A DNA stretch of 24,000 bases, taken from assembly GCA_963790025.1 (NCBI GenBank), contig CAWBMP010000005.1, positions 271,508 through 295,507 on the forward strand, given 5' to 3'. This document shows positions 1 through 16,167 of this stretch, piece after piece. The translations under genes and the position numbers were made by a program. The DNA comes from Nitrospirota bacterium. GTDB lineage: Bacteria; Nitrospirota; Thermodesulfovibrionia; Thermodesulfovibrionales; Dissulfurispiraceae. The stretch's first letter is position 1. Each line of letters starts with the position of its first letter. The notes below the pieces were generated by a model, which did not search any database, had not been told where the DNA came from, and saw only the letters and a list, made by a program, of their open reading frames with translations.

Positions 1-1169
1 CCTTCCCTGTCAATGGCCCATTCAATATCCTGAGGTTGCCGGAAATAGTTTTCAATTTCCGAGGCCTGTCTCGCAAGTTCCGATACCTGTTCCGAAGATA
101 ATGAACTTTCATCAACCATCCCGGCAGGGACCCCCGTTATGGTTGTACCACCCTGGTTGCCGCCCACGACCATCGAGGTCTTTTTACCCGGTCTTTTATC
201 TATTATTTCAGGGAACAAACCTTTTCTTACAACGTAAAAGTCCGCATCTGTCCGGCCTTCAACTACTGACGTGCCCAGTCCCCATGTTGAATTTACAATG
301 ATCGTACCTTCATCCCCATTCGGGTTCGTCGAATAAATAACCCCGCTCACAGCCGCATCGACCATGACCATGCAACCAACCGCCATCTTTATGCTTCCTA
401 TCTCACTTCCCAGTTGCTGAAGATATGCAGCGGCTTTATCCGAAAACAGGCTTGCGATGACGCGCTTATACGCGTCCTGTACTGCACTGCCGTCCAAAGG
501 CACATTCAGGACAGTTTCAAACTGTCCGGCAAACGAAAATTCGCCGTCCTCCAGCTGACCGCTGCTCCTGACAGCAAGAAAACATGTATTTCCGTGGGTC
601 GCCCTGAGCACTGACAGGGCACTATCAAGAACGTGTTCAAGGACAGGCGGAAAACTGCCGTTAATGATCGAAGTGTATATTTCATTTAATAACGGCGCAG
701 GCGTGTCGCTTCCGCCCAATGCCGAAATCTTTTTGTCGATGCCATTATGCCTTATAAACTCATTGTAAGCGGAGCATGTTATGGCAAAGGCATCAGGGAT
801 GTTGAGGGAAGTATTATTTTTCAGTTCAGCGAGATTGGCATTTTTGCCGCCGACCTCATGCGCCATGCTATGGGCAAGCTCACTATAAGGCAGCACCAAT
901 TCCCTTCTCAAGACTTCCTCATCGTAAACATGCAGCCTGATTTCTTTATCGATGGCACTCAATACATTTTTGAGATGAGGATACTTATTCTGTGTGAGGG
1001 CATTGAAGCTTGAGAGAGAATCCGAGAGCTTATCATACAGCAAGGAGTAGGTGTCCCTTATATAAATCACATCGAATATGTAGTCGCCCCCGAGTTTGTC
1101 GCCCATATCAGCGATAATCTCAATCGCCTTATTATGGGATTCGAGGACCTGCCGGAAACGGTCGAACAT
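1..1169 (-). CDS. PEP-utilising enzyme family protein (PEP synthase / pyruvate phosphate dikinase-like, N-terminal ATP-grasp PPDK_N domain). It is partial: the C-terminal part lies beyond the left edge of the window.
   Basis: It is absent from the ORF track because no stop codon falls inside the window. My manual reverse translation is open in one frame from 1277 down to base 1. It reads ...AHSMAHEVGGKNANLAELKNN..., ...VRSSGQLEDGEFSFAGQFETVLNV... and ...FRQPQDIEWAIDREG. These match the hallmark motifs of the PEP synthase/PPDK nucleotide-binding domain (GGKxAxLxE; VRSSxxxED...SFAGQxxTxLNV; DIEWA). In-frame ATGs lie at 1169 and 1277, with an in-frame TAA at 1278-1280. I could not decide between the two starts. 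Confidence 0.75.
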   Translation of the reverse strand, partial: MFDRFRQVLESHNKAIEIIADMGDKLGGDYIFDVIYIRDTYSLLYDKLSDSLSSFNALTQNKYPHLKNVLSAIDKEIRLHVYDEEVLRRELVLPYSELAHSMAHEVGGKNANLAELKNNTSLNIPDAFAITCSAYNEFIRHNGIDKKISALGGSDTPAPLLNEIYTSIINGSFPPVLEHVLDSALSVLRATHGNTCFLAVRSSGQLEDGEFSFAGQFETVLNVPLDGSAVQDAYKRVIASLFSDKAAAYLQQLGSEIGSIKMAVGCMVMVDAAVSGVIYSTNPNGDEGTIIVNSTWGLGTSVVEGRTDADFYVVRKGLFPEIIDKRPGKKTSMVVGGNQGGTTITGVPAGMVDESSLSSEQVSELARQASEIENYFRQPQDIEWAIDRE

Positions 1170-1273
1170 GACCTTGAACGGGATAGGGCGGGCGGGGAAT
1201 AGTTTCCGTAGTGAATCTGTAAATGAGTGTATTAGCGAATGAGTTAACTTCAGGTCAGCGTTTTGTTTCTCAC

Positions 1274-1330
1274 TCATTTACCCGTTCACCCATTTACCCG
1301 TTCACCCATTTACCCATTCACTCATTAACT
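1274..1330. repeat. Tandem direct repeat with a 16-bp period and about 3.5 units (plus-strand unit CATTTACCCGTTCACC).
   Basis: Read directly from the sequence: tcatttacccgttcac / ccatttacccgttcac / ccatttacccattcac / tcattaactcatc. It lies between the stop of the receiver gene (1333) and the PEP-utilising gene. Confidence 0.85.
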
Positions 1331-1332
1331 CA

Positions 1333-1695
1333 TCAGCTCAGGGCGCGCTGTATCGATGCCTTCAGTTCTTTTATCTTTACCGGCTTTGGGAAAAAATCGT
1401 GGACGTCTCCCCTCAATGCCTCTATGGCGGTATCAAGGTTTGCAAATGCAGTAATCATTATAACCTTAATGTCAGGGTAAAGACGTTTTATGGTCCTCAG
1501 AATTTCCATACCGTCTATCCCCTTCATTTTAAAGTCGGTAACTACCACATCGAACTTCTGTTCGCCTAATCGCGCCAGTGCCGGCTCTCCATTTAAAAAA
1601 GTCTCGACTGTATAGCCTTCCTGTTCAAGAGAGAGCTTCGCCATGTCGCCAACAATTTTCTCGTCATCGATAATCATGATTCTGTGATTGCTCAT
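1333..1695 (-). CDS. Stand-alone response regulator receiver protein (CheY-like, no output domain).
   Basis: 120 aa ORF. Receiver signature residues are present: IIDDE, VVVTDFKMKGIDG (phospho-acceptor Asp), MITAF and FPKPV (conserved Lys). A GAGGAGG Shine-Dalgarno site sits 5 nt upstream of the ATG. Confidence 0.92.
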   Translation of the reverse strand: MSNHRIMIIDDEKIVGDMAKLSLEQEGYTVETFLNGEPALARLGEQKFDVVVTDFKMKGIDGMEILRTIKRLYPDIKVIMITAFANLDTAIEALRGDVHDFFPKPVKIKELKASIQRALS

Positions 1696-1711: not shown

Positions 1712-1784
1712 GCGTCGAGCGTTGTGCTGAGAGCATCAAACGACTTTCGACGGCAGTTGGCGCTTAACGCTCAGCGCTCGACGC
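1712..1784 (-). promoter_or_regulatory. Long-range intercistronic stem between the 3' end of the kinase gene and the receiver ribosome-binding site.
   Basis: gcgtcgagcg (1712-1721) is the exact reverse complement of cgctcgacgc (1775-1784). ctgag (1727-1731) pairs with ctcag (1770-1774). That gives 10+5 bp with a small bulge. On the mRNA the 3' arm ends 4 nt before the receiver SD (1701-1707). Confidence 0.4.
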
Positions 1785-3182
1785 CTGACACTCTTTATGT
1801 ACAGGCAATTCTATAGTAAAGGTGGTGCCTACTCCAACTTTGCTTTCCACCCTGATATCTCCCTGATGGTTCTTGATGATTCCGTAGCTGACCGAGAGCC
1901 CGAGGCCTGTTCCGCCTTCTCCTTTTGTGCTGAAAAAAGGGTCGAATATATGAAGCAGAAATTCGGAAGGTATGCCTTTTCCGGTATCCATCACCGTAAT
2001 CTCCACGGACCCTCCGGCGCTTCCGCATCTGGTCGACATAAAAAGCTTCCCGCCATCATGCATGGCCTGGACTGCATTGGTCACAAGATTTACCAGCACC
2101 TGCTGTATCTGGTACTGATCAATAAATACATGTGGAAGGTCCTCGGCAAGGGTCAGTTTTGTCTCGATGTTTGAGATGTCGAGCATATTTTGCACAAGTT
2201 TGAGCGTTTTTTGAACAACTTTATTGATGTCGCTCTCTTTCAGGTTCGCCTCTTTGGGTTTTGAGAAATCGAGGAGGTTTTTTATGATCTCTTTTATCCT
2301 TTCGGTTTCATTCTCCACCTTGGCCATGAATTCAATCCTCTGAGTCTCATCCAGACTATCGTAAAGTTCCATATAGGTCTGTGCTATCATGGAAATGTTA
2401 TTCACCGGATTAGTCAATTCGTGTGCCACCCCGGCGGTCAGGATGCCCAGGGATGCAAGCTTTTTTGCCTGGATCAGCGCTTCTTCACGGTTCTGCAGTT
2501 CGTAAGACATGGCATTTATTGCAGCCATAACCAGACCGAATTCATCATCGGGAAGCGCACTCTCGATTCTGCTGAAATTCCCGTCGGATATCGATTTTGC
2601 GATTTTCTCGATTTCTCTTAGTGAGACGCGAATTTGCCGCGATATAAAATGGCTCACAAAAACAGCGCCTATAAGCACCGCGCAAAAAGAGAAAATAAGT
2701 ATGCTCTTCGATTTCGATATGATTTTGTTTACGCCTTCCCGCTCAAGGCGGGTAGTGGCGCTCGAAAATTCCCGCAGCCTCTGGCCTTCCGCCCTGAATT
2801 TTGCGTCAAGAGAGGTATCGCCATGAGGGTTTTTTTCCTCTTCTTCCACAAGATCGGAATAATTTTTCAGGTCTGATTTAAGCTTTGCAAAGTTCTCTGC
2901 CCCGATAGCACGGATGATATCCGGCCTCTCACTCTCCAGAAGCAGCCCGGCGCTCTCTATTTTTTCTTTAATGTCGAGAAGAAAACTTTCTTTATGATAA
3001 AGGAAATAGTTTTTTTCGGAAAGGCGCATTTCGAGAAAAGATGCATTCAGATCGTCCGCTATCTCAACAAATCTCAGCTTCGTCAAAATGAGATTGAGGT
3101 TCTGCAAGGCAAAAAGACCGATCCCTAAAATCAGCCCGAAAATGAATATATTGGTAAGTATGTTTTTATTTTTTATCTTCAT
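1764..3182 (-). CDS. Membrane sensor histidine kinase: 2 TM helices with a roughly 130 aa extracytoplasmic domain, then HAMP, HisKA and HATPase_c.
   Basis: 472 aa ORF. Hydrophobic segments are NIFIFGLILGIGLFAL and ILIFSFCAVLIGAVFV. The H-box is GVAHELTNPVNNI, the N-box VNLVTNAVQAM, G1 MDTGKGI, F FDPFFSTK and G2 GTGLGLSVS. Confidence 0.92.
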   Translation of the reverse strand: MKIKNKNILTNIFIFGLILGIGLFALQNLNLILTKLRFVEIADDLNASFLEMRLSEKNYFLYHKESFLLDIKEKIESAGLLLESERPDIIRAIGAENFAKLKSDLKNYSDLVEEEEKNPHGDTSLDAKFRAEGQRLREFSSATTRLEREGVNKIISKSKSILIFSFCAVLIGAVFVSHFISRQIRVSLREIEKIAKSISDGNFSRIESALPDDEFGLVMAAINAMSYELQNREEALIQAKKLASLGILTAGVAHELTNPVNNISMIAQTYMELYDSLDETQRIEFMAKVENETERIKEIIKNLLDFSKPKEANLKESDINKVVQKTLKLVQNMLDISNIETKLTLAEDLPHVFIDQYQIQQVLVNLVTNAVQAMHDGGKLFMSTRCGSAGGSVEITVMDTGKGIPSEFLLHIFDPFFSTKGEGGTGLGLSVSYGIIKNHQGDIRVESKVGVGTTFTIELPVHKECQASSAER

Positions 3183-3236: not shown

Positions 3237-4442
3237 TTATTGTGGTACAGGGCAGCGTGGGATTTCTGCCTGCTCCTTTCTTACCGGCATATACCACAGC
3301 CAGCCGTCCACTATCATCAGTATACCTGCAGCAATTAAAAAAGCGTCGATGGCTGTCAGAATGCTGAAGCCGAAATAGTGCATGAGACCCAACCCCAGGC
3401 TGGCAAAGGAAACTCCGGTCCTGATAAAGGCGAGTCCGGTCCTCGCCCTGGCATATAAAGTACGATAGCATGCGGCAACTGTACGTTGTGCGGCCAGAAC
3501 GTTTCTTTCCCGCGCAAGATGGGTCCGTTCCCTGCTGGAAGGCGACGGATACAAAATAGTGCAGTGATCCGCAAGAAAATCGCCGAGACGGGCAAGCATA
3601 GTCTGCCCTGCCGGCAGATGAGTTCCGGGTTGGTCAATAAAATGATAGTTCTCAAGAAACTGGATCGTTGCCGCCGTTACTTCGACAAGCGTCTGGTCTC
3701 CGGGCGGCTTCATCCTTGACTTCCTTATTTTCAAATAACCGGTCAACCCGAAAAGAGCAAGAAAAAACCCTCCGGCCATAACACCATATAAATAAAAAAC
3801 ACGACTCGATTTAAAAGAACGAATCAGTATATCAGATACAGCAATAAGCCGCAATCCCCATCTGAGGAAAGAAAAGTCAGTCCTGGCCATTGCCAGGTCG
3901 GTCCTGTAGCACGCCAGCCGCGTCCTCCATTGCGCCATAGTATTGCGCCAAAATGCAAGTCCTGTCCTTTCGGTCCCGATAAGATAACCTGGTTTTTCAT
4001 GCAGAAAGTCCTGGATGAACCATTGTATGTCCTCTCCAAGCGCCACCCAGAATTCATATTTTTCAGCTTTAATAAACTTTTTTACCTCATCATGCACTGT
4101 GGGGTCTGACGGATTATTCGCAGCCACAACCACCGTATTGCCGTCTCTAATGATCGGAAACCACTGATTTATCGACAGTCGTTCACCATCCAAACCTGCG
4201 AGCAGTTCCGGCGGTATCGGCATTCGCTCATCATATTCCACAAAAGGGCACTGGTAATAATTTGAAAGTGCCTGCAGCAGAATATGCTTTGGGATGCGAT
4301 ACTCCGCGATAAGTACACTTTCCAGATCGATACCTCTGGCGGAAGCGGCACGCTCGGCTTCACAAAGTCTGTCCCGGGTCAGTACGCCCCAACTGATCAG
4401 GTCATTAAACTTATTGGAAGCGATACTATCAACGCTCATCAT
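3237..4442 (-). CDS. Membrane protein, paralogue 3: GspE-N/MshEN-like N-terminal domain plus 2 DUF202-type units.
   Basis: The ORF track gives 3237..4514. The other two paralogues begin MLxNKFERL, which aligns with MMSVDSIASNKFNDL, so I prefer the ATG at 4442 (or 4439). That start gives a 14-nt overlap with the stop of the upstream gene (ATGATGAGCGTTGA). Motifs: ...YYQCPFVEYDE..., ...WFPII..NNPSDPTV..., and two RT-heptad plus two-TM units (ERTGLAFWRNTMAQWRTRLACYRT...; ERTHLARERNVLAAQRTVAACYRTLYARARTGLAFIRTG...DGWLWYMPVRK). Confidence 0.8.
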   Translation of the reverse strand: MMSVDSIASNKFNDLISWGVLTRDRLCEAERAASARGIDLESVLIAEYRIPKHILLQALSNYYQCPFVEYDERMPIPPELLAGLDGERLSINQWFPIIRDGNTVVVAANNPSDPTVHDEVKKFIKAEKYEFWVALGEDIQWFIQDFLHEKPGYLIGTERTGLAFWRNTMAQWRTRLACYRTDLAMARTDFSFLRWGLRLIAVSDILIRSFKSSRVFYLYGVMAGGFFLALFGLTGYLKIRKSRMKPPGDQTLVEVTAATIQFLENYHFIDQPGTHLPAGQTMLARLGDFLADHCTILYPSPSSRERTHLARERNVLAAQRTVAACYRTLYARARTGLAFIRTGVSFASLGLGLMHYFGFSILTAIDAFLIAAGILMIVDGWLWYMPVRKEQAEIPRCPVPQ

Positions 4443-6135
4443 TACTGAAGACCACCTTTTTCCACGAACGGGCCGGTATGCCGTAATCAGGGATAATAAG
4501 CTCCATCTGTCCATAACAATACGGGTACTGCTTTCTTATTTTTTCTGCCGGAAAATGCCAGTAAAACCCATCGGCAATCAGTGTCAATCCAACCACTATC
4601 AGCAACATGTTAAATATAGACCATGCAGCATTGCCCGCACCAAAGAAAACCATGAGTTCCATGCCGACGGCAGTTATGCCTACTCCTGTTCTGATAAAAG
4701 CCAGTCCGGTCCTTGACCGTGCCATTACTGTCCGCAGTCGCGCCATCACATTTCTCCGGTCGGCGAGCATGGTCCTTTCGAGAGCAAGCCCTGTAGTAGC
4801 CCATATACCCGGTGCATGGGACGGCCTGACAGGCGGAACACACTTGTAATCCGAAGCGGGATGTTTTAACGCCGGAGGAAAAACAAAATCCCAAATAGTC
4901 TGTTTAGTCTGCGTATTCCTGACTGCATTAAAACTTATAGAACCGGCACGGCGGCCCGGGAGATACCAGTAAAAACCCTCTGCAGCCATGGCAATACCGC
5001 TAATAATAAGAGCGACATCAAAGAAAGTCCACGGTCCTGGACGGAACTGACGCAATAACCCAATACCGAATCCTATAAAGGCAACACCTGTCCTCGAAAA
5101 AGCCAATCCGGTGCGCGCCCTTGCCATTTTTGTTCTGTAGCATGCCAGCACAGTCCTCTCCTCGGCAAAGTCCGTTCTATCGCTGGCAAGGAACCTGCGT
5201 CTCATAACCGGGGAGAGGTTGTTCCAGTACGAACGCAGGACTGCCGCATCTTGCACATAGCCGGTACGTTCAAAGAGAGGATTGTCACCAGGATTCACGA
5301 CTTTAAGAACAGTGGTCCCCCATGTCGCTTCAGTACCTCCGAAATCATATAATTTTCTCCCTGATTTTCGGGTAGGGATATACCACCGCAGGCCGTCGAC
5401 GGTCATAACCACGCCTGAAATGAACAGTGCCGCTTCAAATACCGTTAATAGCCCTATACCTAAAATTCTGAAAAGCACGATAGCGACCGCCATAAAAGAT
5501 ATCCCGGTCCGGAGAAAGGCCAGTCCGGTCCTTCCTTTTGCCAGGGACGTTCTGGTACATGCCAGCAAAGAGCGCCTGTCCGCCAGAAATGTTCTCACTT
5601 TTGCAAGGGGCGTCCTGCCTGCCGCTGGGGGGAAATGAGGATTGACATCAAAGTTGTGTTCTATGATCCTTACAACGTCTGAAGGCAGAGCAATAACGAA
5701 ATGGATATTCTCAACTCGAAGTTTATCTTTAATGTCCTGAATTACATCAGGGTCGGAAGGATCATATACAATCACTTCGGCCTGCATTCCCCCGACGTAA
5801 TAGGGAAACCAGAGTTTGCGTTTCAGGTCCTCCATATTCAGACGCATGGTAATAAAATAGGAAGACAAGCCGCTCTCATCATATTCTATAAAAGGGAAAT
5901 CGAGATGCCTGGTGAATGCCATCCGGGAAGGTATCACAGTCTCGTCGTATTCGACAAAAGGACACATGTAAAATTCGGAAAGGCAGAACAATATCTCGTG
6001 TTTGGGAACTCCCTTTTCAATCAAACATTCCTCAGGATACTTTCCCGCAGCAAATGAATCCCTTATGCAGTTATCCAGTTCATTTTCGGTGAGGATGCCT
6101 CTTCTTATAAGCCGTTCAAATTTATTGTTTAACAT
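4429..6135 (-). CDS. Membrane protein, paralogue 2: GspE-N/MshEN-like N-terminal domain plus 3 DUF202-type units.
   Basis: 568 aa ORF. N-terminal motifs are KFERLIRRGILTENELD, GVPKHEILFCLSEFYMCPFVEYDE, WFP, DPSDPDV and ALPSDVVRIIEHNF. It then has three repeats of an (x-R-T-x-L-A-x)n ladder, each followed by two hydrophobic helices ending DGLRWYIPTRK / EGFYWYLPGRR / DGFYWHFPAEK. Confidence 0.87.
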   Translation of the reverse strand: MLNNKFERLIRRGILTENELDNCIRDSFAAGKYPEECLIEKGVPKHEILFCLSEFYMCPFVEYDETVIPSRMAFTRHLDFPFIEYDESGLSSYFITMRLNMEDLKRKLWFPYYVGGMQAEVIVYDPSDPDVIQDIKDKLRVENIHFVIALPSDVVRIIEHNFDVNPHFPPAAGRTPLAKVRTFLADRRSLLACTRTSLAKGRTGLAFLRTGISFMAVAIVLFRILGIGLLTVFEAALFISGVVMTVDGLRWYIPTRKSGRKLYDFGGTEATWGTTVLKVVNPGDNPLFERTGYVQDAAVLRSYWNNLSPVMRRRFLASDRTDFAEERTVLACYRTKMARARTGLAFSRTGVAFIGFGIGLLRQFRPGPWTFFDVALIISGIAMAAEGFYWYLPGRRAGSISFNAVRNTQTKQTIWDFVFPPALKHPASDYKCVPPVRPSHAPGIWATTGLALERTMLADRRNVMARLRTVMARSRTGLAFIRTGVGITAVGMELMVFFGAGNAAWSIFNMLLIVVGLTLIADGFYWHFPAEKIRKQYPYCYGQMELIIPDYGIPARSWKKVVFSNDER

Positions 6136-6223
6136 AGTATATAAAGCCCAGAAACTTCATTATTATAAATTATAGCCATATTAATAATAAAATTTTTTCT
6201 CTTCCGGGCAAGGCTCCATATTT

Positions 6224-7867
6224 TTAGCCGCTCTCATCGGTCCTGAACACCACCTTTTTCCATAAACGGGCCGGTTTGCCATAATCAGGTATTATAAGTT
6301 CCATGTCTCCATAGCAGTAGGGGTACTGCTTTCTTATTTTCTCGGCTGGGATGTGCCAATAGAAACCATCAGCAATAAGAGCCAATCCAACCACTATCAA
6401 TAATATGTTGAATATCGTCCACGCGATATTGCCGGCACCGAAATAAACAAGGAGTTCCGTTCCTACCGCAGATACGCCTACCCCGGTTCTGACCAGCGCC
6501 AGACCGGTCCTTGACCGGGTCATTACCGTTCGCAGCCTTAACATTACGTTTCTCCTGTCGGCAAGCATAGTCCTCTCAAGAGCAAGGCCCGTAGTAGCCC
6601 AGATCCCCGGCTCACTGGACGGCCTGACGTTCAGAACGCACTTGTAGTCAGAACCTGGTTGCTTTAGCGCATGAGGAAAGGCAAGGTCCCATATATTCTG
6701 TTTACCCTCTGATTTGCGGACCGACTTGAAGCTCATCGAACCGGCACGGCGGCCCGGAAAATACCAGTAAAAGCCCTCTGCCGCCATTGCGAGGCCCACA
6801 GCGACAAGCGCTGCATCAAAAAAAGTCCAGGGACCGGGACGGAACTGGCGTAATAGCGCAATGCCGAACCCGATAAAGACAATTCCAGTCCTTGCAAATG
6901 CCAACCCTGTGCGCGCCCTCGCCATTGTTGTCCATAAGCACACGTGCGTCGTCCTTTCCTCGGCAAAATCGGTCCTGTCGCTCGAAAAAAACCTGCGCCG
7001 CATTACCGGAGACAGATTGTTCCATCGGGAACGCAACAACGCCGCACCTTCCACGTGACCTGTTCGTGTAAAAAGAGGGTCGTCACCGGGGTCCGTCATT
7101 TTAAGGACAGTAGTTCCCCAAGTCGGTTCAGTTGCAGTAAAATCAAAAACTCTTCTCCCTGTTTTTCGTGCGGGGATATACCATAAAAGGCCGTCATAAA
7201 TCATGAGTATGCCCGAAATGAACAATGCCCCTTCAAAAAAAACCGAAAGCCCCATACCGAAAACCCTGAAAAGAACAACCGCGATGGCCATAAAAGCCAT
7301 ACCGGTGCGTATAAAGGCCAGTCCGGTCCTCCCTTTTGCCAGGGACGTCCTGGTACAAGTCATCAAAGAGCGCCTGTCAGCCAGAAATGTCCTCACTTTC
7401 GCCAGAGGCGTCCTGCCGGCTGAGAATGGGAAATGAGGATTCACATCAAAGTTGTGTTCGATAATCCGAATAAGGTCCGAAGGCAGAGCAACAATAAAAT
7501 TGACCTCCCGAACTCCAAGTGTGGCTTCGACATCCTCCATGACATCAGGGTCGAAAGGATGACACGCAATAACCTCGGCACGGCCTTTGCTGACGGCGAG
7601 AGGAAACCAGAGATTTCGTTTGAGTTTCTCCATATTGAGACGCCTGGTGAGAAAAAAAGAGGCGATGACGCTCTCATCATATTCGACAAAAGGACAACTA
7701 TAGAACTCAGTCAGCGAGAACAATATCTCGTGTTTCGGGACACCCCTTTCAATCAGCCATTCTTCAAGAAGCCTACCTGCCGCTGCGGACTCTCTGATAT
7801 TTTCATCCAATTCCTTTTCGGTGAGAATACCATTTTTTAAAAGTCTCTCGAATTTGTTTTTTAACAT
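6224..7867 (-). CDS. Membrane protein, paralogue 1: GspE-N/MshEN-like N-terminal domain plus 3 DUF202-type units.
   Basis: 547 aa ORF, collinear with and highly similar to paralogue 2 along its whole length. It has the same N-terminal motifs, the same three RT-ladder/two-TM units, and the same C-terminal tail KIRKQYPYCYGxMELIIPDYG. Confidence 0.87.
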   Translation of the reverse strand: MLKNKFERLLKNGILTEKELDENIRESAAAGRLLEEWLIERGVPKHEILFSLTEFYSCPFVEYDESVIASFFLTRRLNMEKLKRNLWFPLAVSKGRAEVIACHPFDPDVMEDVEATLGVREVNFIVALPSDLIRIIEHNFDVNPHFPFSAGRTPLAKVRTFLADRRSLMTCTRTSLAKGRTGLAFIRTGMAFMAIAVVLFRVFGMGLSVFFEGALFISGILMIYDGLLWYIPARKTGRRVFDFTATEPTWGTTVLKMTDPGDDPLFTRTGHVEGAALLRSRWNNLSPVMRRRFFSSDRTDFAEERTTHVCLWTTMARARTGLAFARTGIVFIGFGIALLRQFRPGPWTFFDAALVAVGLAMAAEGFYWYFPGRRAGSMSFKSVRKSEGKQNIWDLAFPHALKQPGSDYKCVLNVRPSSEPGIWATTGLALERTMLADRRNVMLRLRTVMTRSRTGLALVRTGVGVSAVGTELLVYFGAGNIAWTIFNILLIVVGLALIADGFYWHIPAEKIRKQYPYCYGDMELIIPDYGKPARLWKKVVFRTDESG

Positions 7868-7901
7868 AATAATTAATGATTAATGATAATTAATGCGTCA
7901 G

Positions 7902-7929
7902 GCAGCGCGCGTTGAATGTCGCGCGCTGC
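7902..7929. other. GC-rich perfect hairpin (10-bp stem, 8-nt loop) in the divergent intergenic region upstream of paralogue 1.
   Basis: gcagcgcgcg (7902-7911), loop ttgaatgt, then cgcgcgctgc (7920-7929). It is flanked on the gene side by AT-rich ATTAATGA-type repeats (7871-7895). Confidence 0.6.
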
Positions 7930-7996
7930 GGTACTTGACAACAACCTGTAATATGTTTTATACAAATTATATAGTTTAAGAGCTTAATAAAGAAAA

Positions 7997-8404
7997 TTGA
8001 TATATATGGATTTTAGCAAAAAACGTATTTTTTGTCTGCTTTTCCTCGCCTGCTTCATTATTTATGCGTTATCAACCGCTGTCTGTTATATTTACAGCGG
8101 CAAGACCGTTGTACCTGTTCCCCTTCCCTGCAGTTTTGCCAGGAAGTTTGTCGGCCATGGGACCGTCAATCCGTTTGAAAAAAACAACCGCGGCGTTGAC
8201 ATTATTGTGCACATTGTGCGAACTCTTGTTCCGGAAGACAGCATTGCAAAATTATCGTATTTAAAAAAGACACCTGTGTCCAAAAGCTGTTTTTCGATGC
8301 GTTCAATGCAGTCTTCTTTTTATTCTGGAATTTCACCATTTGGGAAAGTCCCGGCCACCGGTTTCCGGTTCTTATGTTCGGGACTCTCTCCTCCATCAGT
8401 TTAG
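7997..8404 (+). CDS. Hypothetical small protein with an N-terminal hydrophobic segment. This is a weak call.
   Basis: It is the only ORF over 100 aa in the 7868-8562 gap. It has an N-terminal hydrophobic stretch (IFCLLFLACFIIYALSTAV). I recognise no motif and see no clear SD. A TTGACA (7935-7940) lies upstream. Confidence 0.25.
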   Translation: MIYMDFSKKRIFCLLFLACFIIYALSTAVCYIYSGKTVVPVPLPCSFARKFVGHGTVNPFEKNNRGVDIIVHIVRTLVPEDSIAKLSYLKKTPVSKSCFSMRSMQSSFYSGISPFGKVPATGFRFLCSGLSPPSV

Positions 8405-8562
8405 TTTTCCTTTCGAAAACATTTATGCCTGCATAGTCTGATCCCCGAACGGAGTGGGATCGGTCTTTGCTCTTTCAGCGTTGAAAAAACGACAATCCGT
8501 GTCCTTGTTGAAAGAAATGACACTGTCCGACTTTTCACATGGGCACTTAAAGAGGAGGTAAT

Positions 8563-12598: not shown

Positions 12599-15049
12599 AT
12601 GACTGATAAAATAGATATTCCTGTAACCGGCATGACCTGTGCTGCCTGTGCCGCTGCTATAGAAAGGACCTTGCCTCGCATCAACGGTGTAAAAACAGCG
12701 GCTGTAAATTTTCCGGCCGAAAGGGCCACTGTTGAATTTACCGACCAAAAGGAACCCGTTCCTCTGCAGGTCATCATTGAAGCCATAAAGGGCGAAGGAT
12801 ATGGGGTTGCGTCGGTAAAAATGAATTTCGCAGTCAGGGGAATGACCTGTGCTGCATGCGTCGGAGCCGTTGAAAGCGCACTGAAGGCACTTTACGGCGT
12901 TTTGAATGTTTCGGTAAACCTTGCGGCTGAAAAGGCTGCTGTTGAATATATACCTACTATCGTCGGGTTCGAGGAATTTAAACGTGTTGTCAAAGAAGCG
13001 GGATATGCTGCAGAACAGCTGACCGATGAGTTTGTCGACACTGAACGCGAGCGCAGGGAAAGGGAATACCTGACGCTGCGCAAGCAATTTATTATCAGCG
13101 CTGCAATGACCGTACCTATTTTCATCGGCAATATGCTGTCTGTTCCATTGCTTTCAAGCTGGTATCTGCTCTTTGCTCTTGCAACGCCGGTCCAATTCTG
13201 GAGCGGCATGCGCTTCCACCGTGCGGCCTTGTCTGCCCTAAAACACGGCACGACAAATATGAATACACTTATCAGTGTCGGGACCAATGCCGCATTTATT
13301 TACAGCTCAGTGGCAACCTTTGCACCGGGATTGTTTATTGCAGGAGGCGTAGCCCCACAGGTATATTTTGATACCTCCGCTGCCATAATAACGCTGATCC
13401 TTCTCGGCAGGCTGCTCGAAGCAAGGGCAAAAGGGAAGACCTCGGAGGCCATAAGGAAACTAATGGGACTTCAGGCAAAGACCGCTGCTGTTGTGCGTGA
13501 CGGTGAGGAGGTCGAGATTTTGATCGAGGAACTGGCAGCCGGCGACATAGTGGTGGTCAGACCGGGTGGCAGGATACCGGTGGATGGGACAGTGGTAAGC
13601 GGCTATTCGACAGTTGATGAATCCATGCTTACCGGGGAAAGCCTGCCCGTAGATAAAATAGAGGGAGACAACGTATTCAGCGGTACAGTGAACAAGGCAG
13701 GCAGTTTCAGGCTCCGGGCGCTGAAAATAGGCAAGGAGACGATGCTTGCGCAGATTATAAGGCTCGTGGAAGCTGCGCAGGGGAGCAAGGCGCCGATCCA
13801 GCGGCTCGCAGACAAGATTGCTTCGATCTTTGTCCCCGTTGTTATCAGCATCGCTGCCCTTACTTTCATAATATGGCTTATTGCGGGACCGGCCCCGTCA
13901 TTTACGCTTGCCTTGATGAATTTCATAGCGGTGCTGATTATCGCGTGCCCCTGCTCGTTGGGACTTGCTACGCCTACGGCAATCATGGTCGGTACAGGCA
14001 AAGGGGCTGAAAACGGCATACTGATAAGGGACGCCCAGGCATTGGAATTGTCCCATAAAATCGGGGTCGTTATAATGGATAAAACTGGTACTATCACAAA
14101 AGGAGAGCCTGAAGTACTGGATATTGCTGCTGCGGTAGGCATGTCGCCTGATGCTGTCCTCAAGATTGCCGCAGCGGCGGAAAAACTGTCTGAACATCCT
14201 CTCGGCAAGGCAATAGTAAAGAAGGCTGTTGAAAAGGGTTTGGTTATGGCCGCTCCCCTGGATTTTACGGCCTCGCCTGGTGGCGGCATAAGGGCAAAAG
14301 TCCTGGATGACGGAAGGGAAAAAGAGGTTTTTATCGGCAATGAGAGAATGCTCCGTAATGAGGGCATCGACTTAAGTCCTGTTATGGATATGGCCCGTCA
14401 TACTGCATCCGGGGGCAGGACTCCGGTTTTCATTGCTGCTGATAAAAATGTGATTGGCGTTATCTCAATAGCCGATGCGATTAAGGAAGGGTCGTCAGAT
14501 GCCATAAAGGATTTACAGTCTATGCGTATAGAGGTTATAATGATAACTGGCGATCATCTGGGCACGGCAGAAGCAATAGCAAAGGAAGTCGGGATTAAAA
14601 CATTCTTTGCCGATGTGCTGCCGGGGGAGAAAGTCGAAATCGTAAAGAGAATAAAGTCCGGTGGAAAAGTAACAGCTATGGTCGGAGACGGGATTAATGA
14701 TGCACCTGCGCTGGCTGAAGCCGATGTTGGTATTGCTATAGGCACCGGCACTGATATCGCAATCGAAGCCTCCGGTCTGACCCTGATTAAAGGGGACCTG
14801 AAAAGCGTAGCGGACGCCATAAGGTTGAGCAAACTTACCATCAGGACCATAAAGCAGAACCTTTTCTGGGCTTTTTTTTACAATGCCGTCGGCATTCCAA
14901 TTGCCGCAGGGGTGCTCTACCCGTTTGGAGGCCCGTTGCTTAATCCTATGTTTGCATCAGCAGCAATGGCGTTCAGTTCTGTTTCCGTAGTAAGCAACTC
15001 TTTGCGGCTGCGGGGAAAGAATCTGCAGAAAAGTTTTCCGGAGGACTGA
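12599..15049 (+). CDS. copA: Copper-translocating P1B-type ATPase with two N-terminal heavy-metal-associated domains.
   Basis: 816 aa ORF. It has two GMTCAAC metal-binding motifs, TGES, the transmembrane CPC motif ([11 protein letters not shown]), DKTGTIT, SEHP, MITGD and [10 protein letters not shown]. Confidence 0.96.
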
Positions 15050-16167
15050 TGCAGAGAAAAGTATATGTTGCTGATGATGTCTCTATAAATATAGAGCTTG
15101 TAGAGTCCGTTTTCAGAAATGATCCCGACCTTTTGATAAGAAAGGCCGAGAACGGACAGGAACTCATGGCATGTATTGAAAGCCACGGCTTTCCCGACCT
15201 CCTCATCCTCGATCTGATGATGCCGGTAATGGACGGCTTCGATGTGCTAAGGAATTTGAAGAAGGCGAGGGAGGCGAGATACTTTCCTGTTATAGTCCTT
15301 TCCGCGCTGTCCGACAAGCAGAGCATTGTCAAGGCCCTGTCCATGGGGGCGGACGACTATGTTACCAAACCGTTCTTTGTCGAGGAACTAAAGGCGCGGG
15401 TCAGCAATATGCTGAAGCTGAAGGAGAGGGATGAATATTTAAATACGTCGCTTGATGTAATGGAATCAAATCTCATCGAGAAGTTGCAGATGCTCGAGAG
15501 CACCCAATTGGAAGTTATTATCAAATTGGGCACGGCTGCTGAATTCAGGGATGATGAGACCGGAAGGCATATTGAGCGTATTGCTGCTTACGTTGACTTA
15601 ATAAGCGATAAAATGAGCGTGAACCGCGAACTGCGTATCATGATGCAATACGCCGCTCCCATGCATGATGTCGGCAAAATAGGCATTCCGGACGCGGTGC
15701 TCATGAAGCCGGGGAAACTCACCAGCGAGGAATTTAACATAATAAAGCTCCATACGCTGATCGGCGGCAAAATTTTGAGCGGAACAAACCTTCCGCTGCT
15801 TGAACTTGCGAAGGAAATAGCCATTACCCATCACGAACGTTGGGACGGGTCCGGCTATCCTTTGGGTCTTAAAGGTAATGATATACCTGTATCGGGCAGG
15901 GTGGTTGCCGTCACGGATGTTTTTGACGCGATTACCTCGGAAAGGGTGTACAAATCAGCATGGCCTATTGAAAGGGCGCTGGAATATATAAATGATATGA
16001 GGGGTAAACAGTTCGATCCCGATGTCATCGATGCCTTTTTTGCAATAGAGACTGAAATAATAGAGGTGAGAAAGGTAAAAAAAGATCTGCCTGTGGCCAA
16101 ACCTATGATTCATCAAATTATAGATGGCGATATCAGTTTTGAACAACTGATTCAGCAATGGAGATAA
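15049..16167 (+). CDS. Response regulator with a receiver domain and an HD-GYP domain (RpfG-type predicted c-di-GMP phosphodiesterase).
   Basis: Receiver residues: VADD, LLILDLMMP, LSALS and TKPF. HD-GYP motifs: MHDVGKIGIPD and HHERWDGSGYP. Its start overlaps the copA stop (TGATG), and GGAGGA lies just upstream. Confidence 0.93.
   Translation: MQRKVYVADDVSINIELVESVFRNDPDLLIRKAENGQELMACIESHGFPDLLILDLMMPVMDGFDVLRNLKKAREARYFPVIVLSALSDKQSIVKALSMGADDYVTKPFFVEELKARVSNMLKLKERDEYLNTSLDVMESNLIEKLQMLESTQLEVIIKLGTAAEFRDDETGRHIERIAAYVDLISDKMSVNRELRIMMQYAAPMHDVGKIGIPDAVLMKPGKLTSEEFNIIKLHTLIGGKILSGTNLPLLELAKEIAITHHERWDGSGYPLGLKGNDIPVSGRVVAVTDVFDAITSERVYKSAWPIERALEYINDMRGKQFDPDVIDAFFAIETEIIEVRKVKKDLPVAKPMIHQIIDGDISFEQLIQQWR

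Follow-up and report, generated by a model that had tools for sequence, protein, structure and literature searches.

DUF202 (Pfam PF02656) is, to our knowledge, a large bacterial membrane family without an established function, and its only structural or functional reference is the eukaryotic VTC polyphosphate polymerase and channel. The SPX-VTC-DUF202 architecture has been described (PMC12388464). VTC is a 3:1:1 pentamer (three Vtc1, Vtc3 and Vtc4) of subunits with three transmembrane (TM) helices, and five TM1 helices line its pore; two basic rings, made up of K24 and R31 of Vtc1 and the corresponding residues of Vtc3 and Vtc4, are required for the accumulation/translocation of polyphosphate (PMC9911596; 10.1101/2023.01.27.525886). 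TM3 contributes to the subunit interfaces (10.1101/2023.01.27.525886). The present analysis concerns three consecutive minus-strand genes, gA, gB and gC, in a stretch of 24,000 nucleotides (nt) from a Nitrospirota bacterium of the Dissulfurispiraceae (contig CAWBMP010000005.1, positions 271,508 to 295,507); the whole stretch is referred to as the window. Their products carry an N-terminal MshEN domain followed by DUF202 helical hairpins (three in gA, three in gB, two in gC). MshEN and DUF202 are both known domains, here fused in a 3+2 arrangement with an invariant arginine ladder. The conserved pair of a long and a short protein is tentatively read, by analogy with VTC, as a pseudo-pentameric anion pore or vestibule that may be controlled by a two-component system.

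The features of the three genes are given in window coordinates, with the evidence in brackets:

6224-7867, minus strand: gA, long-form MshEN-3xDUF202 protein, 547 amino acids (aa) (open reading frame (ORF), Pfam MshEN and DUF202, AlphaFold2 (AF2) model).
7445-7867, minus strand: MshEN/GSPII-like domain of gA, aa 1-141 (Pfam match aa 56-141, Foldseek, motif test).
7148-7435, minus strand: DUF202 unit L1 of gA, aa 145-240, with the R152-R187 ladder, TM1, a short loop, TM2 and DGLLWYIPARK (Pfam, hydropathy, AF2, unit alignment).
6731-7018, minus strand: DUF202 unit L2 of gA, aa 284-379 (hydropathy, AF2, unit alignment, unit Pfam scan).
6329-6616, minus strand: DUF202 unit L3 of gA, aa 418-513 (AF2, unit alignment, unit Pfam scan).
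6227-6328, minus strand: conserved C-terminal tail of gA after L3, PYCxGxMEIxxPDYGxPxRxWxKVxF (homologue alignment).
4429-6135, minus strand: gB, second long-form paralogue, 568 aa (ORF, Pfam).
5647-6135, minus strand: MshEN-like domain of gB.
5350-5637, 4933-5220 and 4531-4818, minus strand: DUF202 units of gB.
3237-4442, minus strand: gC, short-form MshEN-2xDUF202 protein, 401 aa (ORF, Pfam, homologue N-termini).
3999-4418, minus strand: MshEN-like domain of gC.
3705-3989, minus strand: DUF202 unit S1 of gC.
3264-3548, minus strand: DUF202 unit S2 of gC.

The two long proteins, gA and gB, share 74% identity. Against gA, the identity of gC is 34%, and gC has neither a third repeat nor the C-terminal tail. 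The longest gC frame in the ORF listing is 3237-4514 (425 aa). Translation most likely starts at MMSVDS (position 4442), because the N-termini of about 75 homologues agree on this start, and the gC start then overlaps the gB stop by 14 nt (ATGATGAGCGTTGA). The three minus-strand genes of 547, 568 and about 401 aa that a first-pass annotation had called from the letters of the window are therefore present, gC with 401 aa. The same annotation had presented them as a triplet. The triplet exists in the window but is lineage-specific: the conserved unit is one long gene (three DUF202 units) and one short gene (two units), accompanied by a two-component system. Among 80 species-level genome loci, a long gene is followed directly by a short gene wherever the contig allows this to be seen, and the same adjacency is found in Desulfomicrobium salsuginis and Desulfovibrio sp. 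X2. The long stop and the short start overlap in 62 of 77 loci, most commonly by 14 nt, and lie at most 13 nt apart in 14 more. The paralogues gA and gB arose by a recent duplication of the long gene, which is seen only in the window and its closest relatives (loci L005, L006, L008 and L009). In gB, a 22-aa tandem insertion (aa 69-90, window 5866-5931) duplicates the CPFVEYDE motif as FPFIEYDE; it sits in the linker between the two MshEN subdomains, its DNA copies are 66 nt apart (repeat family D9), and it is shared by the gB orthologues of 568-569 aa in the closest relatives.

At least about 1000 clusters at 90% identity are found for each form, the long homologues of about 547 aa carrying the same two domains, and about 15 full-length clusters are found at 50% identity. 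Relatives occur in 260 of 185,579 species-level genomes, nearly all from the Nitrospirota class Thermodesulfovibrionia and some from Desulfobacterota. The carriers listed are Thermodesulfovibrionales, Dissulfurispiraceae, Ca. Sulfobium, Dissulfurimicrobium, Desulfocapsaceae, Desulfomicrobium and Desulfovibrio sp. X2, and one carrier metagenome-assembled genome is labelled Gammaproteobacteria. We take almost all of these lineages to be anaerobes that cycle sulfur. Two carriers are cultured: Desulfomicrobium salsuginis and Desulfovibrio sp. X2. No natural five-unit fusion is found among the homologues listed, whose maximum length is about 590 aa. The names that databases give them are assigned automatically ('hypothetical', 'DUF202 domain-containing', 'YidH family', 'type II secretion protein'). 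No curated model of NCBIfam or PADLOC covers the MshEN-DUF202 fusion, a literature search gave no paper with both DUF202 and MshEN or both PF02656 and PF05157, and the YidH/DUF202 papers found hold no functional data on bacterial DUF202. The first-pass statement that this architecture was not recognised as a characterised family agrees with these searches.

The DUF202 unit is about 96 residues long, and all five unit types (L1 to L3 in the long form, S1 and S2 in the short form) align in exact register. PF02656 matches the whole proteins with 35.2 bits in gA (two stretches), 56.5 bits in gB (three stretches) and 20.9 bits in gC, for a cut-off of 23.4. Scanned unit by unit, L1 (28.7 bits), L2 (26.7 bits) and S2 (26.5 bits) pass, L3 (18.8 bits) falls below and S1 is not matched. 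The repeats had been assigned rightly to the Pfam family of Vtc1 and Escherichia coli YidH. One PF05157 match and two or three PF02656 matches had been expected in each protein: the former is found in all three, whereas the latter is found in gA (two) and gB (three) but only below threshold in gC. The shortfall comes from L3 and S1, which have diverged beyond the reach of the Pfam model.

Hydropathy and AF2 agree on two TM helices per unit, as the first reading had assumed. The monomer models, built on family alignments, have a predicted local distance difference test (pLDDT) score of 81.6 and a predicted TM-score (pTM) of 0.74 for gA, and a pLDDT of 77.8 and a pTM of 0.59 for gC. They place the paired helices at 152-203/209-237, 287-341/348-388 and 427-476/481-514 in gA and at 157-209/213-243 and 306-357/363-391 in gC. 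In each unit, the long helix opens with some 35 residues of RTxLAxx heptads and goes on as TM1, the whole forming one continuous helix in the models. The periplasmic loops have 4-6 residues; all longer soluble segments are rich in Arg and Lys and are therefore expected to be cytoplasmic.

The ladder Arg of gA are residues 152, 159, 166, 173, 180 and 187 in L1, 291, 298, 305, 319 and 326 in L2 (position 312 is W), and 432, 439, 446, 453 and 460 in L3. Each ladder position, from offset -35 to offset 0 in exact steps of seven residues, is 96-100% Arg in all five unit types of the 77 long and 75 short homologues compared; the sole exception is a Thr at -35 in L3. The strict period of seven read from the window is hence found in these sequences as well, and a long and a short protein together have 29 near-invariant ladder Arg. 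Within the heptad, position 0 is R in 83%, position 1 is T in 66%, position 3 is L or M in 72% and position 4 is A in 79%. Helices packed between two neighbours in a barrel typically carry an a/d/e stripe of this kind. The conservation of the ladder is far above chance, and the repeat also shows as a 21-nt periodicity in the DNA. In the membrane, the ladder face continues with small residues (S/A/G) at +4, +7 and +11 and, in four units out of five, with R/H at +14. Units of one type are 65-78% identical to each other, against 22-44% between types, which fits five fixed, non-equivalent unit positions.

The ladder also occurs outside the pair. In single-hairpin relatives (P0205, P0226, P0229, P0243 and P0262), 15-25 consecutive xRTxLAx heptads precede a two-TM DUF202 hairpin; a helix of this length could reach about 25 nm, and the ladder is a module of variable length. 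In P0179 and P0198, the ladder, a DUF202 hairpin and a C-terminal response-regulator receiver are joined in one polypeptide, a sequence-level hint that receivers may act on DUF202 ladder proteins. These uncharacterised ladder-only and receiver-fusion proteins (P0205, P0226, P0179, P0198) have the xRTxLAx heptad and the two-TM hairpin RTGLAF...FRYFG...W..FD in common with the pair. They differ from it in having one hairpin only, with 15-25 heptads, and neither an MshEN domain nor tandem units. A continuous basic stripe, with five or six rungs in the pair and up to about 25 in the relatives, spaced about 1 nm along the helix, would also suit proteins that tether or organise a cytoplasmic polyanion (polyphosphate granules, nucleic acid) at the inner membrane, with an outward Arg/Thr stripe for binding and the hairpins as anchors, and the family link to the polyphosphate-handling VTC points the same way. 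This explanation is nevertheless distinctly unlikely: the heptad Arg are flanked by conserved Leu and Ala, which is the pattern of a packing stripe and not of an exposed one, the annotated neighbourhoods showed neither granule-associated nor nucleoid genes, and five non-equivalent units would be left without explanation.

In the comparison with described DUF202 proteins, the sequences used for Vtc1 and YidH score 63.9 and 71 bits with PF02656, and positions 1, 8 and 15 of the DUF202 profile correspond to K24, R31 and N38 of Vtc1, to R13, R20 and R27 of YidH and to R173, R180 and R187 of gA. Because these profile coordinates put the canonical rungs at K24/R31 of Vtc1 and R173/R180 of gA, the heptad ladder is the canonical DUF202 motif with two or three further rungs on its N-terminal side. 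VTC and the pair have the same PF02656 membrane unit, five DUF202 units (three Vtc1, Vtc3 and Vtc4 in the former, 3+2 concatenated in the latter), basic residues with heptad spacing at the cytoplasmic start of TM1, and N-terminal soluble domains on the cytoplasmic side. They differ in that VTC has five subunits whereas the units of the pair are concatenated in two polypeptides; in that the ladder has 5-6 rungs instead of two; and in that MshEN-like domains and a two-component system stand in place of the SPX and TTM polymerase domains, neither SPX nor VTC (TTM polymerase) domains being matched by Pfam in gA, gB or gC. E. coli YidH, likewise uncharacterised, has the same Pfam domain and the motif R-x6-ERT-x4-RT, that is three heptad rungs, in the sequence used; it is a protein of 115 aa with one unit, three TM helices and no soluble domain, whereas gA, gB and gC have two or three tandem two-TM units, longer ladders and an MshEN domain. 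CorA and ExbB are pentameric channels in which the pore helix extends as a long cytoplasmic helix. Their likeness to the pair is one of functional analogy only (the inner TM helix runs on into the cytoplasm as a long helix, and each protomer has two or three TM helices): there is no sequence relation or significant fold relation, and the lining chemistry differs.

The N-terminal domain is matched by PF05157 (MshEN) with 44.3 bits in gA (E 1.8e-11), 31.2 bits in gB (E 2.2e-7) and 44.1 bits in gC (E 2.1e-11), for a cut-off of 23.1. In the AF2 model of gA it consists of a four-helix bundle followed by an alpha/beta subdomain. Superposed over their first 140 or so residues on MshE (5htl_B) by Foldseek, gA and gC give TM-scores of 0.76 and 0.70; the 5htl structure is that of MshE-N with bound cyclic di-GMP (c-di-GMP). 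The GSPII-A and GSPII-B domains of PilF give 0.62-0.68, further fold matches are 8pdk, 9g1w, XpsE-N (2d28) and the PilB-N/PilZ complex (7lko), and a family profile retrieves the PilF, PilB and MshE N-domains from the PDB by sequence. No ATPase domain follows the N-domain in gA, gB or gC (Pfam, NCBIfam), and the match to TIGR02538 is limited to the first 137 positions of that model. The secretion-ATPase type of the N-terminal domain and the lack of an ATPase had both been recognised from the letters of the window.

A strict c-di-GMP motif and a relaxed version for genome searches were defined by the same authors (PMC5013675). Neither version matches any of the 77 long or 75 short forms. Positions 1-3 and 24 read (K/N)-K-F...S in motif 1 family-wide and Y-P-E...Y in motif 2, in place of R-L-G...Q; in gA, the contact residues are replaced by NKF...S and LLE...Y. 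The MshEN_N scaffold is retained, with its hydrophobic core, turn Gly and 24+5+24 spacing; in the most divergent long forms, the four-helix bundle is entirely missing. All 152 members compared have lost the contact residues (R, L, G, Q), so that c-di-GMP is unlikely to be bound in the way of MshE. The first-pass annotation had seen that the leading RLG is absent and had left ligand binding open: the loss of RLG stands, replaced by (K/N)KF, whereas the question is no longer so open, both half-sites being lost.

These residues bear on the view that the pair are membrane-bound c-di-GMP receptors or effectors, in which binding to MshEN regulates the membrane part. The fold and its spacing are kept, the fold matches include c-di-GMP-bound structures, and the NCBIfam c-di-GMP-motif model NF053729 gives a weak match (E 0.002). 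A response regulator with an HD-GYP-type (HD) domain is also encoded at 15049-16167 (plus strand), 7 kb from the cluster; the HD-GYP-type domain is a c-di-GMP phosphodiesterase. With no sequence passing even the relaxed motif, 17.8 bits for NF053729 against a cut-off of 38, distant members without the four-helix bundle and an HD-GYP gene that is not syntenic in relatives, such a role is very improbable.

The likeness to the N-domains of MshE, PilF, PilB, GspE and XpsE thus lies in the PF05157 sequence, the fold and the hydrophobic/Gly scaffold with 24+5+24 spacing. Compared with the MshE, PilB and GspE ATPases, gA, gB and gC lack the ATPase, have replaced c-di-GMP contacts and have the domain fused to a polytopic membrane protein. 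Their nearest MshEN relatives are GAF-MshEN-GspE ATPases (P0192 and P0206), with which they have the motifs KF(D/E)RL and CPF(V/L)E(Y/F)DE in common; these ATPases are a plausible source of the domain. The first motif of P0192 and P0206 also lacks RLG (TKFDRL and TKFDLL), and by their sequence they may be a second MshEN group that does not bind c-di-GMP. This relationship, together with source annotations such as 'type II secretion protein', would be expected if the proteins belonged to a machine of the type II secretion or type IV pilus kind, as its platform or anchor. Such names derive solely from the PF05157 match, and no secretion or pilus gene (GspE/F/L/M, PilB/C/M/N/O, pilins) is found in the Pfam-annotated neighbourhoods of eight loci; the constant partners are a histidine kinase, a response regulator and a phosphoenolpyruvate (PEP)-synthase-like enzyme. 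A secretion platform is accordingly a highly unlikely identity.

These partners lie downstream of gC in the window (evidence: Pfam, synteny):

1764-3182, minus strand: sensor histidine kinase (two TM helices, HAMP, HisKA, HATPase_c).
1333-1695, minus strand: receiver-only response regulator, 120 aa.
3-1277, minus strand: PEP-synthase-like protein, N-terminal 425 aa with the PPDK_N ATP-grasp domain, running off the window.

Neighbourhoods were tallied in about 83 loci, namely the 80 species-level genome loci and three metagenome contigs. In most of them a HAMP histidine kinase of about 470 aa and then a receiver-only response regulator of about 120 aa follow the pair, and they do so in two phyla, Nitrospirota and Desulfobacterota. 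The genes overlap in L085 and L086, and in Desulfovibrionales all four (long, short, kinase and regulator) do so. The pair occurs without an adjacent kinase and regulator in L003 and about 15 other loci, several of which are cut by contig ends. The PEP-synthase-like gene comes next after the regulator in about 57 of the about 83 loci; it is kept in Nitrospirota and is not found in the Desulfovibrionales loci. Its full-length relatives have about 860 aa (e.g. L001:16571-19153), with PPDK_N and a phosphohistidine swivel domain and without the PEP/pyruvate TIM barrel; their ends (the N-terminal 130 or so and C-terminal 310 or so residues) have no Pfam match up to an E-value of 5. In L001 (19204-20199) and L004 (15559-16554), this gene is followed by that of a receiver-less sigma-54 activator of 331 aa (AAA+ and HTH_8), which with the receiver-only regulator looks like a split NtrC-type regulator. 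A second histidine kinase and an NtrC-type response regulator are encoded a few kb upstream in many Nitrospirota loci, and L002 also has TauE and Usp genes there.

The conserved kinase and regulator, and the ladder-DUF202-receiver fusions that parallel the operon link of the pair to a receiver-only regulator, argue that two-component signalling acts on the complex. They would also be expected if the pair were a membrane co-sensor or signalling accessory of the kinase, with no transport. The hairpins would then serve as anchors and as sensors of the state of the membrane, of charge or of envelope stress, the Arg/Thr heptads would form a rigid signalling stalk, the MshEN-like domains would contact the kinase or a downstream partner, and the regulator would have a different target, such as the sigma-54 activator or the PEP-synthase-like enzyme. 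The position of the kinase and regulator genes directly downstream in two phyla, the ladder of 5 to 25 heptads in single-hairpin relatives (as for a stalk), the receiver fusions, the receiver-less sigma-54 activator of L001 and L004, and AF2 monomers that are closed helical bundles all speak for it. An Arg invariant at every heptad of all five units is abnormal for a signalling coiled coil, the aligned VTC residues line a pore, a pure sensor gives no obvious reason for a constant total of five units and strict 3+2 pairing, and the pair also occurs in the loci mentioned above without an adjacent kinase and regulator. On this balance a co-sensor or scaffold of the kinase is a serious alternative, somewhat unlikely yet only slightly less probable than the pore reading that follows.

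The pore reading draws on three things taken together. Strict pairing with translational coupling, five non-equivalent units and ladder rungs that coincide with the VTC pore rings lead to a proposed 1:1 pseudo-pentameric heteromer. Co-produced from overlapping genes, the long and short proteins would assemble into one inner-membrane complex whose five non-equivalent DUF202 hairpins form a ring of five. The first helix of each hairpin would present about 35 cytoplasmic residues as an RTxLAxx ladder and run straight into TM1, and by analogy with VTC the five ladder helices would enclose a pseudo-pentameric pore with a long cytoplasmic vestibule lined by about 29 Arg. The pore would bind or conduct an anionic solute, probably phosphate-rich or polymeric. 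The two MshEN/GSPII-like domains, presumably no longer c-di-GMP-binding, would serve as cytoplasmic docking or gating modules, and their partner would most plausibly be the phosphorylated receiver-only response regulator of the co-transcribed two-component system. These domains are the obvious docking sites because the fold is a known protein-interaction module, with protein-docking precedents among the fold matches (the PilB-N/PilZ complex 7lko and XpsE-N 2d28) and in PilB1-NTD, to which regulators bind. The data establish directly which domains are present, the register of the repeats, an invariant ladder, obligate gene pairing and the two-component link; the heteromer, the five-fold ring, the inward-facing Arg, the nature of the substrate and the contact between regulator and MshEN are what we infer from them.

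Several results weigh against this reading. A profile of 28 units finds no VTC chain in the PDB by sequence, and hhalign gives only 6% probability against the Vtc1 sequence used; the VTC link therefore rests on the shared PF02656 model. The residue equivalent to E30 of Vtc1 is G179, A318 or S452 in gA, so that the E30-R83 ionic lock is not conserved, and the units have two TM helices instead of the three of VTC and YidH. The basic residue at +14 is usually accompanied by E/D at +25 in TM2, a charge pair that suggests a salt bridge within the hairpin and not a pore ring at that level. AF2 monomers bundle their own hairpins, and the fold matches of the membrane part are all non-significant (Foldseek: ABC-exporter transmembrane domains with a TM-score of about 0.14 for gA; designed four-helix bundles and ExbB, E about 0.7, for gC). 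A ladder of 15-25 heptads, as found in the relatives, has a length to be expected of a stalk more than of a vestibule. The annotated neighbourhoods showed neither ppk nor ppx nor any other gene for polyanion synthesis. The target of the regulator could instead be, in some genomes, the receiver-less sigma-54 activator or the PEP-synthase-like enzyme. In one PilB1 study, PATAN domains bind PilB1-NTD and CheY-type receivers did not bind PilB1; the contact between regulator and MshEN is for this reason kept as a proposal. The pseudo-pentameric pore is retained as the leading reading, though only as a possible one, with these points in view.

A bolder form of it makes the pair a bacterial counterpart of the VTC translocon. 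Polyphosphate, or another polymer of phosphate or sulfur oxyanions, would pass the inner membrane by being threaded through the vestibule of 29 Arg; its supplier in Nitrospirota would be the PEP-synthase-like ATP-grasp/phosphohistidine enzyme, acting as a new kind of polymerase or phosphotransferase; and docking of the regulator on the degenerate MshEN domains would switch the channel on. This version is a long shot.

Upstream of gA, an intergenic region of 695 bp (7868-8562) separates it from a divergent gene for a DegP-like protease and holds one ORF of 135 aa with a TTG start (7997-8404). No sigma-54 promoter is matched upstream of gA on the minus strand of 7868-8562, and the window-wide count of such matches is at chance. 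Scans for sigma-70 promoters and terminators were uninformative, promoter-like sites being at shuffle level. Rfam gives no RNA family in the whole window, and PADLOC matches no family for gA, gB, gC or the PEP-synthase-like protein.

The stoichiometry of this system appears to be written into its genes, as 3+2 units that are always paired. The basic rings presumed to line the pore are expanded to an invariant ladder of five or six rungs, and the two-component system would give a regulatory handle. The MshEN/GSPII fold seems, from its contact residues, to have been reused as a membrane-tethered module that does not bind c-di-GMP, which bears on genome-wide counts of c-di-GMP receptors based on PF05157. 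The cultured carriers Desulfomicrobium salsuginis and Desulfovibrio sp. X2 are open to genetic work. The 3+2 arrangement and the invariant ladder offer an unusually informative way into what bacterial DUF202 proteins do. Should the pentamer reading hold, the pair would be a tractable model for the selection and movement of polyanions by DUF202 channels and would point to polyanion export in sulfur-cycling anaerobes.

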